This document shows positions 16,453 through 64,000 of a DNA stretch of 64,000 bases, piece after piece. A program made the position numbers and the translations under genes. Every line of letters starts with the position of its first letter. The first letter of the stretch is position 1. Under the pieces are notes generated by a model. That model did not search any database, was not told the DNA's origin, and saw nothing but the letters and a program-made list of their open reading frames with translations. The DNA comes from Octopus vulgaris (lineage: Eukaryota): NCBI GenBank assembly GCA_951406725.2, contig OX597814.1:43214001-43278000 (forward strand), in the 5' to 3' direction.

Positions 16453-16530
<78 letters not shown>

Positions 16531-16533
<3 letters not shown>

Positions 16534-17275
16534 CAGTTCCGGCGTTGCTCAGGTTTGTAAGGGAAATAACTATAAAGCATTTTTAGAGAGTTATAGCCAA
16601 AAAATAGAAAAAAATGATGGTAAATTTTTTTGAGAGTTAAAACAGGTGGAGTTGCGTCCCTAGACGGTCTGTGGTTTGGGTTTCTCATTCTCGACCCCAT
16701 GTCGAATTTATCGATTTTTTCAGAACTGGGGGAACTTTTCAAAATTTTCGCTGCGTTAGTTTTGAATTATGACATTGGGCTATGTGTGTGTCAAGTTTCA
16801 TCAGAATCGGTTGAAAGCCGTGGTCAGAGTGAGGGTACGAGAAAACAGACACACAGAAACACGCACAGACAAACTGCCGTTTATATAGAGAGAGATAGCA
16901 GTATCGCCCGGCGTTGCTCAGGTTTGTAAGGGAAATAACTATAAAGCATTTTTAGAGAGTTATAGCCAAAAAATAGCAAAAAAATGGAAAAAAATGATGG
17001 TAAATTTTTTTTGAGAGTTAAAACAGGTGGAGTTGCGTCCCCTAGACGGTCTGTGGTTTGGGTTTCTCATTCTCGACCCCATGTCGAATTTATCGATTTT
17101 TTTTCAGAACTGGGGGAACTTTTCAAAATTTTCGCTGCGTTAGTTTTGAATTATGACATTGGGCTATGTGTGTGTCAAGTTTCATCAGAATCGGTTGAAA
17201 GCCGTGGTCAGAGTGAGGGTACGAGAAAACAGACACACAGAAACACGCACAGACAAACTGCCGTTTATATAGAGA
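16531..17275 (-). mobile_element. Two head-to-tail copies (~365 and ~380 bp) of a non-autonomous Helitron-like element
   Basis: Copies at 16531-16895 and 16896-17275 are near-identical. The minus strand starts TCTCT..ATATAAAC and ends with a CCTGAGCAACGCCGGG hairpin plus ACTGCTA. Confidence 0.8.
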
Positions 17276-17297
17276 TATATATATATATATATATATA

Positions 17298-21984: not shown

Positions 21985-25030
<3,046 letters not shown>

Positions 25031-25957
25031 GACGTACAGTAGGACTGTGTGGGTTTAGTACAAATAAGAAAGTGGTATAATGGATTCGAAACCCTGATCA
25101 GAAACTTTCGGCTTTCTGACAGGTATCGATTGTTTCCCTGATACGCCAGTGTGGATATGGAACAATCACAATGGGTCATCCAGATTGTATCTATATAGAA
25201 TGTTTTAGATCAGCAGATAAGGATAGTATAGGGTTTCCCCGATTGAAATTGGTCGACTACAATTTGAAATTGGTCGACTGTGATTTGCACAGTTAATTTC
25301 TATAGGATGAGTGGACATGATTCCAGTTACTGGAAGTTGAACGTGTCCTTTCCGGCGCACAAAGACTGCAGGGACCCGATTAGTAAACTGATTAGGCAGC
25401 AGTTGAAGTAGGTAATCGTTAACTCTGGAGTTGCATAGCCCTGAAGAGTGCGATTAGGACATAATCAGTAGAGTTTACCAAAAAGTTAGTTATAGAAAGA
25501 AACGGATTAGAGGGAGAACTAGAAGAAGCGATTAGTAAACACATGGCTAATGGCGTGTTTAGCGGCAAGAATGGCTCTTGACTATTTCTTTGAGGTGAAT
25601 CACAAAGGTTGCGTTGTCAGAGCTAAACCAGTGCGCTAAAGCATGAGGAAACTGAAGCGGTCCGAAAGCCCCGAACGATGGAGACTTGACGAGACTACAA
25701 AACCATGATCACTTCTTTGATGGATCGTGAAGGGGGCGTACTACATGGTTCTTAGAAGTTGTGTGCGGCTTTTCAACAGCACTTCCCGCAACTCCTTGGA
25801 GACGACGATGCGTCAACAACGGTGACGAAATTAAGTTCGTACCAGGATGAGCTGCGGCTGCTCTCGGTGGCGGGCTCGAGGTTCTTCCAAAAGCAGGTAA
25901 ACGCCACTGAAATACCAGATGTGTCGAGCGATTGCACAAGTTGCATATCATCAAGTT

Positions 25958-27760
25958 TAGGTGGTCTGTCCTATAAATTCTATGTATTCATGTCAGATTT
26001 GTTTGGCAACCCTTTGGCAGGCGTTAAACGCAACTGGTAAAATAAAGGGAAAATTCCCAGTGCTGATAGTCGGGCTGTGGTGACGCTGACAGTGAGAACA
26101 TACTAAGGAATTTTCGGCCCATAACTCTGGTAAACGCAAAGTCTGAGATTTTGGCCAAGGTCTTAGCGAAAATGTTGGGGCTTGTCATTGGTATTCTAAT
26201 AGGGGAAGTACAAACGTGTACCATCCCCAACAGGTCTATCCACGAAAGCGTCCACCTTATGCAATACTTCTTATAGATGGTTGGAACTAAAGATGGCTTC
26301 GGTGGGGCACGGATATATTTGGATCAATTAAAATCATTCGATAGGGCTACTTGGAAGCCGTCCCTGAAGCGGTCGGTTTCAGACCCCTTCTCAGAGGATA
26401 GATCACTGCAATGCACAGCGGTACCTGCTCAGTGGTCAAAGTAAATGACCATCTATCGAGACCATTTAGCATCGCACTGTCGGTCCCTCAGGGCTGCCTA
26501 CTCTCACCTCTTTTGTACCTGTTGGCTCCCGAGCCACTGCTACGGAAGTTGGAACAATTGAGAGGCATCCTTTCTGAATTGGGTCTCGGAAGTGCAGTGT
26601 CTGCAAATGCGGACGACGTAACTCTCATGGTGTCAGACGCCTTCGATGTGGAGACGGTTGGCTCCATTCCAGAAGAATATGAGTCAGTTGAAGCGACTAA
26701 AATCAATGCCGAGAGGTCGGTGGGCTTGCGGCTGGGCACCTCTTGAGGCAAGTCGATGCTGCCAGACAACGCCGTCGGACGCTATACTGATGGACCAGTT
26801 AAAGTGCTCGAGGTGTAGTTTGGTCTGACTACCAGGCGGATAAGGATTGAGACGAGTTGACGATAGGGCTACTTGGAAGCCGTCCCTGAAGTGTGACCGA
26901 TCTTACCCAGAAATCGGCTGAGTGGAAGCCATACGTGAAAAGTCGGGCAAAGATGACGAATGCCTACATCGTACCCGTTATCATTTATCGTCTAGCCGTC
27001 GTGCTTACTCCAGTTGTTGTTTGACCAAGTTGCAGCAACTTAATGTTCTTGTTAATGTTCTTGTTAATGCAGTTGTCAGGCAGTTAATCTGCTTTCAGCT
27101 CCCTCTGAGTGGCGGCTTAGGCATGCGGTGGAGTTTGAGCCGCAAACATGCGCTCAGGTTGCGCTACCTGCAACCATTTGTAGAAGGTGACCGTGTGGGG
27201 GCTCACTGTCCTCTACCAGTCGGGCAACGGCGACGAGATTTAGTTCGTACCTGGATCACCTGCAGGTAAACGCCACTGAAATACGAGATGCGGCTTAGGC
27301 ATGCGGTGGCGTTTGATACATAACTAAATGGGAACATATAGTTATTTATAGCGGATAAGTGGCGGTAAATTGCGGCAACATCCTAGGGGAGAATCTTGGC
27401 GTTGCGGATATTATGGATCATTCCCAAACGCCTTGAAAAGCAAATTGAAGGTGGCAAGGGAGGCGCTGTCCTCGAGTGAATTCCTGAAAAGGTGGGACAA
27501 AGTTACGAAAAGGGTAACAGTGGATGGTACCGCTCTCAGTGTAGGCCTATGAGTCGGAGGAAAGGAGTTGGAAAAGGGATTTGTCTGTGGTCAGTGTTAT
27601 ATTGAATGGTGGGGTTCCTCGGTCATACCTCGTGGTCCTTCTGTATCCGGAAAACCCACATCACATTTGTTTCCTTATTGCTGTATACTATGTATACGTC
27701 ACTTCTTTTTATATCATTCTATTATATGTACACCTACACACTTCGGCCTTGTGGCAAAGA
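25958..27760 (+). mobile_element. L1/Tx1-like non-LTR retrotransposon RT region, degenerate
   Basis: Reads NFRPITLVNAKSEILAKVLA, QTCTIPNRSI, LDQLKSFDR, VPQGCLLSPLLYLLAPEPLLRKL, SANADDVT, KINAERS and LPLSGGLGM. Confidence 0.85.
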
Positions 27761-28578: not shown

Positions 28579-28582
<4 letters not shown>

Positions 28583-28715
28583 GGAGTGTCTATGAGGTAA
28601 GTAGCTTGCTAAACAACCACATGGTTCGGGGTTCAGTCCCACTGCATGGCACCTTGAGTAAGTGTGTTCAACTCTAGCCTCGGGTCGACCAAAGAATGGA
28701 TCCCGCCGTATATAT
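28579..28715 (+). mobile_element. SINE family A 5' part (tRNA-like head)
   Basis: GCAGGAGTG..TGAGGTAAGTAGCTTGCT...GGGTTCAGTCCCACTGC (Pol III B-box-like), followed by AAGTGTG..CT.TAGCCTCGGG.CGACCAAAG. Confidence 0.7.
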
Positions 28716-28814
28716 GTGTGTGTGTGTGCGGGGTGTATGCACTTATCTATTATGTATATATCTATATATCTATCTATCTATCTATATACTTATATATATA
28801 TATGTATATATTTT

Positions 28815-29124
28815 ATATTATATTGAGGGTACTACTAATCGTAGATACCAACACGCTAAGAGGGACCAATGCGGTCAAAACTACTAAAAATAAACAAAAT
28901 TTTACCGAATGCAAAACTTCAAAACACATCATTTTAAAAAAGAATTCAGTTACATATCACATGTGATTTCGCATTTAATGCAGAATATGCATTTCATGTT
29001 CATCAGTGCAACAAACTCAAGAAATATAAGAGAAAACATAACATTACAAGCTCGATAGCCAACCGTAGAATTCATCGTAGCATGCACGAATGTTTATCTT
29101 TACATATCTATGAAAATGGCGGTC

Positions 29125-29130
<6 letters not shown>
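28815..29130 (-). mobile_element. Short non-coding element between (TA)n tracts carrying a hammerhead motif (Penelope pLTR/retrozyme-like)
   Basis: ~315 bp of unique sequence bounded by AT microsatellite. It contains the HHR at 28949-29012 and shares a terminal motif with the element starting near 63500. Confidence 0.6.
28949..29012 (-). ncRNA. Type I hammerhead ribozyme motif
   Basis: Minus strand: GUUGCA-CUGAUGA-A[CAU GA AAUGCA UAUUC UGCAUU AA AUG]C-GAA-AUCACAUGUGAU-A-UGUAAC. Stem I is 6 bp, stem II is long, and stem III is palindromic. Confidence 0.82.
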
Positions 29131-29181
<51 letters not shown>

Positions 29182-29259
29182 ATTTATGTATATATATGTA
29201 TGTATATATATTATATTTATGTATATATATGTATATATATATATATATGTATGTATTTG

Positions 29260-29295
<36 letters not shown>

Positions 29296-29315
29296 TATAT
29301 ATATAGATATATATA

Positions 29316-29701
29316 CTTTCCGGTCAGAGTTGCGGTCATGCTGATGCACAGCCGTTTTGCTACACAGTTATTACTGAGAGCCTCCTCTAATATGTGGCAC
29401 TTATTGAAGAATGGTGTTTGATGTAGGTACCCTCATTTGCGTCTCTTGCCGTGAGGTAGGTTCATCTAGAACTCTCGACAGGAAGAGGTCCAACTTTGAT
29501 TTTAAAATACCTAATCTACTTTGTGCAGGTTCCTCAGGCTCTTATTAAAAGGTTGTGGGCCCCTGAAACTCTGGCTGTTGCAGACACTGGTACTAAAGCG
29601 CGGTGGTGTTGCTGGGATCTTTGGCACTATGCAGTGTCGTCCCGTTCTGGTATTGGTGTAACTTTCAATGCCAAAATTTGGCACAATTCATTCCAGGTTT
29701 T

Positions 29702-29705: not shown

Positions 29706-29757
<52 letters not shown>

Positions 29758-29761
<4 letters not shown>

Positions 29762-30711
29762 GACAAATTCATCGTCAGGAACTTTGTAAGGTTCAGTATA
29801 TAGTAAAGCAAATAAAAGGGCTAGCAGCAGGCTGCTTCACTTCATACCGAAGGAATTAGAAATGGCAGTCAAAGACTGTTTTTTCCATTTTCTGTAAGTG
29901 GAGATTCCAAAAACGAAGGCCCGTGCGGCTCACTTACACAAAACCGGTGTAGCAAATAGACGCAAACAGTCACTTACCGTTAATAACGAACATGTTTCTG
30001 GATCACAAACTTGGAAAAGTAGTTTGATTTCCTTCTTCGTCGCTATATTCGATAGATTTACCAAATGCCACAGGCCCTCACTTCTGACCCAGCGACATCA
30101 GATAGTGGGGGGAAGTGTGCATATGTTAAAACTAAGTAATGACTGGGAACGTAAATTTTCCCTCCAAAATTCTGTCATGCGCGCCTTCTGGGTAATCGTA
30201 ATGGAATAAGGGATCCACATGGTAATGCAATAAAAATGGTAAATAATTTTTCTGTGGTTTTTCATGTAACCAACTATTATTTACCGGTAAATTTCGGTAT
30301 GTAAATACGACACATTGATCATCAGGAACTTTGCAAGGTTCATTATATAGTAAAGCAAATAAAAGGGCTAGCAGCAGGCTGCTTCGCCTCATACCGAAGG
30401 AATTAGAAATGTCAGTCAAAGACTGTTTTTTCCATTTTCTGTAAGTGGAGATTCCAAAAACGAAGGCCCGTGCGGCTCACATACACAAAACCGGAGTAGC
30501 AAATAGACGCAAACAGTCACTTACCGTTAATAACGAACATGTTTCTGGATCACAAACTTGGAAAAGTAGTTTGATTTCCTTCTTCGTCGCTATATTCGAT
30601 AGATTTACCAAATGCCACAGGCTCTCACTTCTGACCCAGCGACATCAGATAGTGGGGGGAAGTGTGCATATGTTAAAACTAAGTAATGACTGGGAACGTA
30701 AATTTTCCCTC

Positions 30712-30714
<3 letters not shown>
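29758..30714. repeat. 547-bp tandem repeat, ~1.75 units, flanked by (TA)n
   Basis: Near-identical spurious ORFs at 29898 and 30445 are offset by 547. The second unit is truncated by (TA)n at ~30714. Confidence 0.95.
30262..30335 (-). ncRNA. Degenerate hammerhead-like motif at the tandem-unit boundary
   Basis: Minus strand: CUGAUGA-UCAAUGU..ACAUACC-GAA-AUUUACCGGUAAAU-A. The core and palindromic stem III are intact, but stems I and II are imperfect. Confidence 0.5.
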
Positions 30715-30786
<72 letters not shown>

Positions 30787-31116: not shown

Positions 31117-34100
31117 CTAGCTGAACCACCACTCTCCGGGCAGTCGATTCTGATAATACATATCTATACTACTGTTCGTAGTTTGAAGGTAATATTTGAA
31201 ACCTTATACTCTGAGTCCAATATATGCATATTGTTTCTAGATCCGGGTATTAGCAGGTAAATTCCAACTTTCTCTAAGGCCTGACCCTGAGATTTTTTTG
31301 ATGTCATTCCAAAAGCCGGCTTCACGAGAAACTGCTCCCAGGAAAATGAGAACGAATAGTCTTCAGTGATGGTCAGTGGAATTCATGGTACCGTTATTAA
31401 GGTTCCAGCATGTGTTCCATTGGCCACTTCTGCTTCAATAAGGTGGTTGTGCAGATTCAAGACTATACGTATTGTTCCGTTGCAATGACCTCCTGCTGGA
31501 TCAAGGTTTCTGAGCAGCATAATAGAAGAGGGCTTCTCCAAAACCAAAACGTGATTGATTGAGATCATAGATCAGTTCCAGTGGGAACTTAGGCGTATTT
31601 TCGAGTAAAGTTTTACAGCTTCGAATAAGTTTTACTATCTCCTTGTACTAGTTTCGGCATGACAAGTGTATTCACTTCTTCAGCAGCCTTGCTTGTAGGA
31701 ATATTGACGAATCTGCAGTTCATCCATAGTCCCTCTCTATATCTCTTATCAAAACCCCTGAATACCACTTCACAAAGGTCTTGTAGCTTTGTAGAGTCAA
31801 TCAAATGCGGTGGAGGAATAGATATGTTATATTCACCTATTTCTGACGTCTTCCTAGTTGAAAGATAGATCACCATTCAGCGTATGATTGAGGAACTTTG
31901 ACGTGATGTAACATCTGCCGGACATTGTAAGCGACAATGGGGAGGCGACCAATAGTACTGGTTTCATAGTTGCCATCTTCCATGATTGTTCCCTTTCCCT
32001 CTTTTACTGCTTCTCGTTTTTATTCTAAGTGTAAAACCTTCGATTTTCAGTATATAGCTTGCCTCTGGCGTCTGAGTCATATTCATTTAATTGAAAAACT
32101 CAAACTTATTTTTGCAGCAAGCTGAAGATTTTCGGGCAGCTCATCATCAAAAGTAAGAGATCATGAATTTTCAAAGGGCATGAAAGATTTATGAAAGTGG
32201 GTTGCCTGGAATGGATTGGAAATTTGAATATCTTCCAAATTCCCTCAAGACACGTGATGTATCTTGCATTTTGGTAAGTGTCAATTTCATTGTCAACCAC
32301 TTTAATGCTTCTGGTATTCCAATTGATTTCTCAGTACTAGGGCCGGATTTCAACAGTGACTCTACTAGGTCCTTTAGGGGGGTACCTGAAAAGTTATTTC
32401 ACCGCCAGAACAGCGTGCAAGGCGTCAACATTTAGATGGCAGTTGTATCGGATAGGAATGGGTTGTATGGCACTATGATGTATTTTCTACTACAGCAGAT
32501 ATCCGAGTAGTTCTAATGTGTAGCCTGCCTCCAGAGGCTGGTGACCGACGTCTGTATTCTGGATTGCAGTCTTCACTCACAAATGTGGTACGTCTGCATT
32601 GTTTGGGAATGGTTTTGGGGTTTTGGTGGATCACAATCCATGTATGAACTATTTGGACTATGGCATCCACATTGTCTGTGAACGTTGTTTTTTACAACAA
32701 TCTCCAATAGTTCTGGATTCGTATCCTTATCTAGTATCTCCGCACATACAAATCGATCAATGATTTCTGACGTTCTTGGCTTATCTGAAACAGCCATAGA
32801 GAGCAATAGTTGGACATGGGAAGACCTCTCTTATGCCATTCAATTGTTGCGACATGTTCTACTACTTCTCCCCATCTTTAATGGATCTTATTTCAGGGAG
32901 TCGTACTTCATTTTAAACAATATCGCTGTAATATCAGGTCGATTCTGTGTTCGTTCACCTTCAAACAGGGCTTCCATTATCTCAGTCAACTTTGTATTTG
33001 TTATCATAGTGATGAAATAGCCTGGCTTTCCAAACTCTCTCACCAGAGCCGTTCCATCTTGTAAACACACCCTGTAAAACCGAGAACAACCAGTATGTGA
33101 TGGCGGAGGAATGATTTTAGAACCTACCCAAAGTCATTCGTGTTACCATTTGCAATGGCATTCAGAAAGCCCTGGTACTTCTCATCACCGTTTTTGCTTC
33201 GGTCATTGTCCGTCAAGAGCACATTCCAGCCATCGTACTCACAGGGAAAAAGAAGTAAATAATAAAAAGTGTCATAACTTCTGTGGATTTGATTAATGTA
33301 GTCTAACTTTCTATTGCTCTCTCTGTACTGCACAACAATATCCAGAGGTTTAATGTTTGGATTATTGGTATCATTCCCAGCATAATCACAGCAACGTCTG
33401 ATGCAGTTAATAGACTATAGGTTCTCACATGTGACCCACCAGAAATAAGCCGTTTGTCATCAATTATGATAATATCGTCGGTATAAACTTTTCCTGGTGC
33501 AGAGTATTCCTTAATTTTATCAACAGCCTGTTTAAAATTTTGACATACGGATTGTGCATTTGCAGTACTCTCTGCAAGTCTAGCAGGATGTTGTCGTCAG
33601 GGCCATTGTCAGCTCCTCTGAATGACAGACTGTTTCTCATTTCATTTTCAGTGTCAACGAAATAGAGCTGTGCATAGACGGGCTTCTTATTTACTGCTAG
33701 TAGGGACAGCCTATGCGGTGGTACAACTTTTCTTGAATCTTGAAAGTTAGCATAAAAGTTCTACCACCCGGTAGTTCAACTGGTGGATAATCCAGTCCAA
33801 GTGACTGCAGAGATTAACATCATAGAACTTAGTTATTAATTCTGGGGGCTTTTTGTATCTGTAGAATTTTGTCATTGCTAGTTTTACCTTTGCTACATCA
33901 GAAGGTAACTTTCTCAGGAGCCTCCAAAGGTAAGCTTTGCAGTCAGGGCATGTTCTGTTAAAAATGTTTCCACAGTAGTACAACATAAGGCTTGGGTTTC
34001 ATTCTTTCTCATGAAAATATGCCACATCAACTTCCATAGCCGTTCTCTCAGTGTCAGTTCTTTGGTGACGAAGTTTCGATTGGTATCGTGCCTAGTTGTT

Positions 34101-35233
34101 TGTTTGCTTTTCGCTGCCGAATTTGTGGCAGTGATATGTTTTCTCTAGAGTCCTGCTTCCTCAGCCGATCAGTATTCCTCTTTCCATTGCCCGGGTTTCC
34201 TGGGTTCTCATTTGATTCGCATTCCTCCGTGCTTCTGAATATTCTGGTCTTTCCATTGCACATGTCACCTGTCTCATCAGCCGATCTGCATTTCTCCATG
34301 CCTCTGCTTCTTCTGGTATTTCCATTGCCCGGGTTTCTTGCATTCTCCTTCGCTTTATTTCTGGATACTGAGAAGAGCTATGTCCTTGTCTGTTTTCTTC
34401 ATTTAGCGTCTGTTGTCTTTGCACAGTGATCTTTTTTGAACGGGAAATTTTCGGGACAGGTTGTTGCCTTTTCTGGGCATAGTGTACTTTTGAAAGCGCG
34501 AATATTTATGACAAATATATAGTGAAGGTCTTTGGACGATTCAGCTAGTATTTGAGTTAATTTCTCTGAACAGGAAGATTTCATGGTATTTATTGTAAAT
34601 ATTTACAATGGGTATATATTTACAATTACACCACTATTGTTAATCCTATTATTTTAAAGTGAGATTTTTATGTTGATGAATTGTACTAACCGAATTTGAC
34701 CATAAAAATGTCGGACATTTAGTATTTTTTAAGGTAATAATAAAATTATTCGAATCTATTTTCATACAGTCGAATATGCAAAGTTTCCGAATGTTACATA
34801 TTTTTTTTACGTCTGCTATTTCAGAATTCTACGCATGCGTGAAACTTCAGACAAAAGTACATTCAAAAACATATTCATACACACAACGGCGTAAACAGGC
34901 ATAACGATAACACCGACGGCCGACGGCATCAAAATAGGTCCGACAAATTGTATTATTATTTTAAAAAATACTAAATCTCCAACAGTTTCATGGTCAAATT
35001 CGTTTAGAGAAATTCAATAATATAAAAATAGCACTTTATGAGAGTGTTTAGCAAGTATGGCGTAATTGTAATTTTTACCGAAGAATAACAGTATTTTTAT
35101 GGGGTTTTTTTTCAAAATGACGCTGATAGAGACATTTGAAAGAACGCAAGTAGTAAATATGTGTGAGAGAGAAAGAAAGAGAGAACTAGAGTTATGAGAG
35201 GTAACGTTGCTTGAGAGAGTGACTTCAATATGT

Positions 35234-63502: not shown

Positions 63503-63636
63503 ATGAGGGTGTCTAAAAGACACCAACATGCTGAAATAGCAGTCGAAACTCTGACTATAAAACCACGTTAAATGTTCATATCGCACCATGAGGTAAAGCG
63601 GAGGGACAAAACATACAAGCAAAAATTATTGAATAA

Positions 63637-63694
63637 TTCATGATCCAAGGATTTCTGGTTCTGCTTTAGATAAGCTTTACCGTCATCAATTGAA
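63637..63694 (-). ncRNA. Hammerhead motif, mirror copy in the left arm
   Basis: Reverse complement of the 63868-63925 motif. The inner stem II GCUU/AAGC is intact and the first stem-I pair is mismatched. Confidence 0.6.
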
Positions 63695-63867
63695 TATATC
63701 AAGGGTACATAAATACAGATACATATATGCACAGCAAATGATGATTTGGCGGGCGACTCAAACTGGCTGTGTCCATACGTGCATATGTATGTATGTGCGA
63801 CGCTCGTATATGTAAGTATATCGTTTGCTGTGCATATATGTATCTGTATTTATGTACCCTTGATATA

Positions 63868-63925
63868 TTCAATTGATGACGGTAAAGCCTATCTAAAGCA
63901 GAACCAGAAATCCTTGGATCTTGAA
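63868..63925 (+). ncRNA. Type I hammerhead motif (UUGAUGA core) in the right arm
   Basis: UUCAA-UUGAUGA-C GGU..ACC A-GAA-AUCC UU GGAU-C-UUGAA, with a 5-bp stem I and an AUC cleavage triplet. Confidence 0.68.
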
Positions 63926-64000
63926 TTATTCAATAATTTTTGCTTGTATGTTTTGTCCCTCCGCTTTACCTCATGGTGCGATATGAACATTTAACGTGGT

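Follow-up and report, generated by a model that had tools for sequence, protein, structure and literature searches.

The minus strand of the 64-kb window (the whole stretch of DNA analyzed here) carries a type I hammerhead motif at 29012-28949, and this motif lies in a truncated copy of a multi-copy repeat. Taking all the evidence together, we consider it likely that this copy derives from the pseudo-LTR at the 3' end of a Penelope-like element (PLE), with a ribozyme predicted to work best as a dimer. The window is AT-rich, microsatellite-rich and without long ORFs, resembling in this the DNA of an animal genome.

Structure of the hammerhead

Read along the minus strand, the motif opens with the 5' strand of stem I, GUUGCA (29012-29007), which pairs with the 3' strand UGUAAC (28954-28949) through one G-U wobble. 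The core CUGAUGA (29006-29000) is followed by position 10.1, an A at 28999 that stands opposite C 28971. Stem II then forms with 9 interrupted base pairs, in which a lower helix of 3 bp (28998-28996/28974-28972) and an upper helix of 6 bp closed by a 5-nt loop (28993-28988/28982-28977) are separated by a 2x2 internal loop, GA/AA. The GAAA core (28970-28967) leads into stem III, a perfect 12-nt palindrome (28967-28956), and the AUA triplet ends at H17, which is A 28955. In hammerheads, the NUH rule places the cut 3' of position H17, and the predicted cleavage site is consequently 3' of A28955 (28954..28955, minus strand). An earlier note on this DNA had claimed the same CUGAUGA/GAAA/AUA core, 6-bp stem I, extended stem II, 12-nt palindromic stem III and cut 3' of 28955. 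All of these elements were recovered here from the sequence (the core also by the descriptor scan), and the predicted site agrees with the NUH rule.

The motif matches the type I consensus in the sequence and in the descriptor scan (C3-U4-G5-A6-N7-G8-A9, G12-A13-A14, A15.1-U16.1 and H17), and its three helices with an open-ended stem I are found both by the scan and by folding. The departure of the window copy lies in the pair beside the core, where A·C takes the place of G10.1-C11.1. Using a strict type I descriptor, 29012-28949 was the sole match within the window, and none of 300 dinucleotide shuffles (2-kb blocks) contained a match, while a loose descriptor was matched in 3 of 300.

A hammerhead-like arrangement that arose by chance in AT-rich DNA could be argued from several observations. 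The Rfam scan of the window returned no hammerhead match at the gathering score, and between 28600 and 29400 no hammerhead family matched at E<=10, the 23 weak matches there being far under their gathering scores and mostly on microsatellites. Likewise, the fold energy of the hammerhead 64-mer is ordinary in comparison with shuffles (z -0.57), and the palindrome of stem III is not rare by itself, as the window holds 36 perfect 12-nt palindromes. Nevertheless, no shuffle passed the strict descriptor, and the relatives of this sequence restore G10.1-C11.1 and, among the listed changes, vary in the core at position 7 only. The chance reading is already largely refuted, and we give it hardly any credence; the motif is real and beyond chance expectation.

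The repeat family and its truncated copies

The hammerhead sits in an inserted fragment of about 312 bp (28815..29126, minus strand), delimited by loose ends of contigs at 28814-28815 and 29122-29126, which is likely what 5' truncation has left of the 3' end (pseudo-LTR) of a longer repeat. Self-comparison revealed no second copy of it within the window. In public data, 20 of the 24 listed runs hold at least half of the words of the fragment, under 8 organism labels and in 12 studies, many of these runs being small, and X21-X24 hold next to none. Four of these runs, all consisting of contigs, were aligned to the fragment (X1, n=14; X7, n=621; X2, n=18; X20, n=1), a kind of data that cannot show RNA ends. 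Their identity to the fragment ranges from under 90% to over 99%. The fragment is a member of a diversified multi-copy repeat family, and its description as an orphan element in the earlier note is true inside the window only.

Upstream of the fragment, the loose ends at 29122-29126 share one sequence in runs X1, X2 and X7. An X2 record with this sequence is 979 nt long, of which 48 nt lie on the stretch and up to 931 nt extend beyond it. Because the mean depth of this record (67.4) is close to that of the main hammerhead contig (80.8), the upstream extension, known from 30 letters of loose end, represents the body of the repeat and not unique flanking DNA. The repeat unit is at least about 1.2 kb long, and the window copy is cut short on its 5' side. 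The size of about 315 bp proposed earlier is close to that of the fragment, but this length was set by truncation and is not that of a monomer unit. Other copies are also truncated at the 5' side, as seen in loose ends at 29038, 29049, 29097, 29117 and 29126. The summed depth in X7, about 470,000 at 28834-28866, declines to about 14,000 at 29065-29075, in agreement with 5' truncation, with the reservation that depth is no copy number and favors query-like contigs. The loose ends at 28851-28852 are mostly diverged homologues and not true ends.

The segment that follows the ribozyme (28815..28948, minus strand) ends about 140 nt past the cut, and other copies carry it in inverted orientation where they are truncated on the 5' side. 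In two X1 contigs, the match to the fragment breaks off at 29038 and 29097, and what comes next is the opposite strand of this 3' segment, the loose ends matching minus strand 28918-28903 and 28888-28874 (chance expectation 0.01 and 0.00). These inverted junctions were read from 30-letter loose ends and concern 2 of the 8 X1 contigs among those listed (14 in all). No head-to-tail joint was present among the joints listed for the four runs, in a table that also missed the inverted junctions, and the window has no tandem copy; the tandem arrays raised as a possibility in the earlier note are thus not borne out.

Both ends of the window copy adjoin microsatellites, (TA)n/(TATC)n at the 3' end (28744..28823) and a (TA)n-type tract at the truncated 5' end (29126..29315), and (TA)n likewise follows the 3' end of the repeat in three X7 contigs. 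Microsatellites at both ends occur in 31 of 48,448 comparable stretches, a feature that is not specific to PLEs. A near-identical copy in one X1 contig instead runs 119 nt past 28815 into non-microsatellite sequence absent from the window. Along this extension, the minus frame 28956-28813 stays open by eye and contains an ATG with which a tandem ORF might begin. We also found that 28902..28913 (minus strand) is complementary, apart from one bulge, to what relatives carry immediately upstream of 29126, as read from loose ends of three runs (pattern match, 0/100 shuffles). This complementarity may correspond to a long-range RNA stem around the ribozyme or to an old inversion.

Regarding RNA, the one recorded RNA run, X20, yielded a single contig of depth 2.2. 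No joint was listed for this run or for X2, which is RNA by guess, contigs being weak evidence on circles.

Variation among relatives and predicted activity

Position 10.1 separates the relatives into two forms, with G in the most abundant ones and A in the window copy and several others. In X1, five contigs span 28999 (depth 84.8), three of which have G on the minus strand (70.2), leaving by subtraction two that keep A; one of the latter is near-identical to the window copy with a different 3' neighbor, and the other shows 9 differences from it in 121 nt. G is present in two of the three X2 contigs (115.9 of 127.4 depth), and the single contig of X20 keeps A. In X7, G was seen in only 2 contigs (5,294 of 67,054), a count in which changes near the ends of short contigs are not included. 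Because five of the nine long contigs from X1, X2 and X20 have G10.1, G is likely the functional state of this position, and because the other four keep A, the contig sequences indicate that the A·C pair is common to several copies and is not decay private to the window copy. In X2 and X20, the A contigs might represent the locus of the window copy in other individuals. Therefore, the earlier view of A·C as a G>A mutation stands in that G is the likely functional base at 28999, and falls in attributing the change to the window copy alone. An A·C mismatch at 10.1-11.1 is expected to lower the activity of a hammerhead.

The listed core changes among relatives are restricted to position 7, the free position, supporting the conserved structure among homologues that had been named beforehand as a test of the hammerhead. 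One X2 loose end belongs to a relative in which the center of the stem III palindrome is imperfect. Listed variants affect none of the 24 positions in the core, stem I and the upper part of stem II, compared with 17 of 73 positions upstream (p=0.010). This contrast ranges from p=0.0025 to 0.010 over sets picked post hoc, and becomes 3 of 34 (p=0.11) once the set is widened to 10.1 and the fourth stem II pair; it must be interpreted with the position set chosen after the data were seen and with changes close to contig ends unlisted.

The minimum fold predicted for the monomer pairs the core with stem III (-12.4 kcal/mol), and the active monomer fold is placed 2.8 kcal/mol above this minimum with a probability of 0.004. 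For the homodimer, the predicted minimum-energy fold is the active double hammerhead (-35.8 kcal/mol), a result also obtained for all four variant forms modeled. Stem III (28956..28967) is predicted to form 4 bp with a 4-nt loop in the monomer and a 12-bp duplex in the homodimer. The energy gained in the dimer lies within the range of shuffles (40 of 300 are as strong), and consequently the topology, not the energy, is the relevant point. According to these models, the hammerhead is predicted to cut best as a dimer. Since it has no partner in the window and bears A·C beside the core, the window copy is probably a weak or inactive ribozyme. Several copies have inherited the A form, suggesting that they spread without needing a fully active ribozyme.

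Searches for a linked protein

The earlier note attributed no coding capacity to the element. A Pfam search of 5 frames of the 312-bp element gave no match, which upholds this statement for the window copy only. PLEs are defined by an ORF with a telomerase-like RT and a GIY-YIG endonuclease. No RT or GIY-YIG gene linked to the family was found in 73 frames of 23-36 kb, and the frame downstream of the ribozyme had no match among 18 candidates. Peptide searches with the element frames retrieved nothing relevant, a weak blank given the poor coverage of the host. Indeed, using the LINE RT at 24367-25097 as query, the relatives were only 40-55% identical among 20 matches; with a host so poorly covered, blank protein searches weigh little. 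When the 5' part of the element was tested for coding, 6 of 11 changes were silent in the minus frame 29124-29047, compared with 3-4 of 11 in the other five frames, numbers too few to call. The sole protein match of this frame (P0022) was discarded, because it adds up alignments to an NHL-repeat protein that are all weak (<=26 bits each). The stem II pattern had 0 matches among metagenome and viral contigs, and the sole match to a gapped pattern (L001) was rejected, being located inside a bacterial ORF and without the stems. A bacterial promoter scan remained at chance level and is not relevant here.

Probable relationship to Penelope-like elements and alternative origins

The (TA)n flanks, the palindromic stem III, the upstream continuation and the inverted junctions all fit the pseudo-LTR end of a PLE. 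In its passages on PLE insertions, PMC8557442 describes copies truncated on their 5' side, accompanied by an inverted truncated copy next to them, and microsatellites as targets. The repeat analyzed here shows frequent 5' truncation (from loose ends and from depth, the latter being biased), an inverted 5'-truncated copy at the 5' end, microsatellites at both flanks and a hammerhead with a palindromic stem III in what would be the terminal repeat. PLEs also have a partial tandem, in which the pseudo-LTR precedes the ORF, and a tail of 30-40 bp; the contigs that bear on these traits are the X1 contig running 119 nt past 28815 and those with loose ends at 28851-28852. PLE hammerheads themselves are characterized, in the relevant sections of PMC4209133 and PMC6765202, by a palindromic stem III, a long stem II and a conserved G10.1-C11.1, and are reported there to cut slowly and as dimers. 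Several points count against this affiliation: no RT or GIY-YIG gene was linked to the family, PLE hammerheads usually have an extra base between positions 9 and 10.1 (PMC4209133, in its motif description), which is lacking in the G form here, and our stem III is longer than that of metazoan PLEs, called "extremely short" in the corresponding statement of PMC6765202. On balance, the repeat family is likely a member of the PLEs.

As far as they are portrayed in the consulted sections of PMC4209133, the hammerheads of metazoan PLE pseudo-LTRs resemble the present one in being type I, in their long stem II and palindromic stem III, in the predicted dimer, in G10.1-C11.1 (for the main relatives here) and in occurring mostly as single motifs in truncated copies. 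In contrast to their minimal or small stem III, the one described here is a 12-nt palindrome that gives 4 bp as a monomer; stem II has an internal loop, the G form has no extra base after position 9, and an ORF was not seen. The same sections present fungal and protist PLE hammerheads that share with ours a longer stem III and no recognizable loop 1-loop 2 contacts (PMC4209133). However, these cleave as monomers, whereas the present hammerhead has a palindromic stem III and, in its predicted monomer fold, a hidden core.

A further comparison is offered by PAc, the Poseidon element of Anolis carolinensis, for which the relevant parts of PMC11167929 report insertions that end 111-118 nt into the ORF with a cut at +26, dead ribozymes that still insert in vitro, and ribozymes that need the protein. 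Its insertion end, roughly 100-140 nt past the cut, and its AT-rich target are similar to those observed here, and the dispensability of catalysis for insertion in vitro fits the spread of the A·C form (PMC11167929). In contrast to PAc, whose ORF starts in stem II (PMC11167929), the stem II ATG of the window copy runs into a stop codon immediately past the cut, and this ATG is altered in the G-form relatives.

If this affiliation is correct, the parent element would be transcribed as a tandem precursor, in which two hammerheads would dimerize via their palindromic stem III and cleave the RNA 3' of A28955. At an AT-rich target, reverse transcription would then begin about 140 nt past the cut and often end prematurely, leaving fragments such as the window copy in its (TA)n tract.

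The family could instead consist of ORF-less, non-autonomous retroelements that carry a ribozyme, have units of more than 1.2 kb, depend on borrowed PLE enzymes and maybe form RNA circles via double hammerhead cleavage, an origin we regard as unlikely. No coding frame was found for the family in the searches with element frames, the upstream loose end complementary to 28913-28902 could close a long stem around the ribozyme, and non-autonomous PLE derivatives with pseudo-LTRs exist in Chlamydomonas, according to the section of PMC8557442 concerned. However, only 30 letters of the upstream extension are visible, where an ORF is possible; no joint was listed in the two RNA-type runs; and the X1 contig that passes the 3' end by 119 nt shows, by eye, an open frame that includes an ATG, which would be expected ahead of a tandem ORF. 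The more specific version, in which an ORF-less family of more than 1.2 kb would carry an obligate-dimer hammerhead (via an unusually long palindrome of 12 nt) and a long-range clamp, and in which one subfamily would have multiplied after the loss of G10.1-C11.1, has a similarly small chance of being correct. If true, the family would be a new non-autonomous one that carries a ribozyme, and it would serve as a natural test, in vivo, that spread does not require cleavage.

That the element is a small non-LTR retrozyme, with a monomer of about 315 nt producing circular RNA, as suggested by its size in the earlier note, is more doubtful still. The fragment falls within the 150-450 bp and the low GC of metazoan retrozymes as given in part of PMC7229834, and the family is present in small runs guessed to be RNA. 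The retrozymes of coral, mussel and axolotl likewise combine a type I hammerhead and low GC with a non-coding stretch of similar length (PMC7229834, same part). Nevertheless, they are head-to-tail tandems of 150-450 bp with canonical hammerheads and abundant circles (PMC7229834, same part), whereas the repeat studied here has a unit of more than 1.2 kb, inverted truncated junctions, and neither a tandem copy in the window nor a joint listed in any of the four runs (from the table that overlooked the inverted junctions too). At its 5' boundary the loose ends pass into other sequence of up to 931 nt, at the 3' side they enter (TA)n or sequence absent from the window, and the 311-nt strand, which in linear form folds no better than shuffles (z -0.87), is not highly self-paired. 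With no tandem, no joint listed and relatives that extend far upstream, the retrozyme idea is not supported. Finally, the hammerhead could belong to another mobile element, such as a LINE 3' end or the Helitron remnant (PF14214, PF21530) situated 2-5 kb upstream on the same strand, and this we judge very improbable: microsatellites and at least two other repeats lie between the two, one 3'-side loose end is absent from the window, and the inverted truncated junctions fit a PLE better.

Genomic neighborhood

The Helitron at 31200-34500 (minus strand) is broken and retains Helitron_like_N (PF14214) at 32891-33133 and a Pif1 2B domain (PF21530) at 31386-31571. A CUGANGA-GAAA arrangement inside it (31683-31652) was discarded as a hammerhead, since it fails the descriptor. 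A 69-bp tandem is located near the 5' end of this remnant (34179-34337), and just upstream of it is an imperfect, MITE-like long inverted repeat (34620-35071; 67% over about 450 bp). Remnants of LINE reverse transcriptases (PF00078) are present at 24367-25097 (minus strand) and 26402-26743 (plus strand).

Closer to the element, the short repeat at about 28580-28740 looks similar to octopus SINEs, and 29320-29700 (minus strand) looks like the 3' end of a CR1/L2-type LINE from the peptide of frame 29541-29401. Between two (TA)n tracts, 29751-30715 contains a 547-bp partial tandem with 418 bp duplicated at 96.9%, and at 30325-30280 (minus strand) CUGAUGA...GAAA precedes a 14-nt palindrome, although stems I and II do not form. 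This region may be a second, decayed PLE-type insertion. Common descent of the two hammerhead-like motifs was rejected, as their alignment is without homology. The minus frame 30280-30101 has what we took for a GIY-YIG-like look; this assignment found no support and no matches in the searches. Self-comparison further detected a 365-bp partial tandem at 16517-17281 (93.5%) and a long palindrome at the window end, 63562-64000 (88%).

Implications

Penelope elements are among the octopus repeats treated in PMC13282606 and PMC8967140, both of which, in the parts drawn on here, have 0 mentions of "ribozyme". Among the papers covered by our search, none describes hammerheads in octopus or other cephalopods. 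PLE hammerheads are already known, with thousands per genome, and one more truncated copy matters little by itself. The length of stem III, which exceeds that of the described metazoan PLE motifs, is of modest value. This hammerhead is probably a further example of the known PLE kind, and not a lone circular-RNA element. The role of PLE hammerheads is open according to PMC8557442 and PMC11167929, and since the present family includes G10.1 as well as A10.1 copies, it lends itself to comparing cleavage rates directly with the number and age of the copies.
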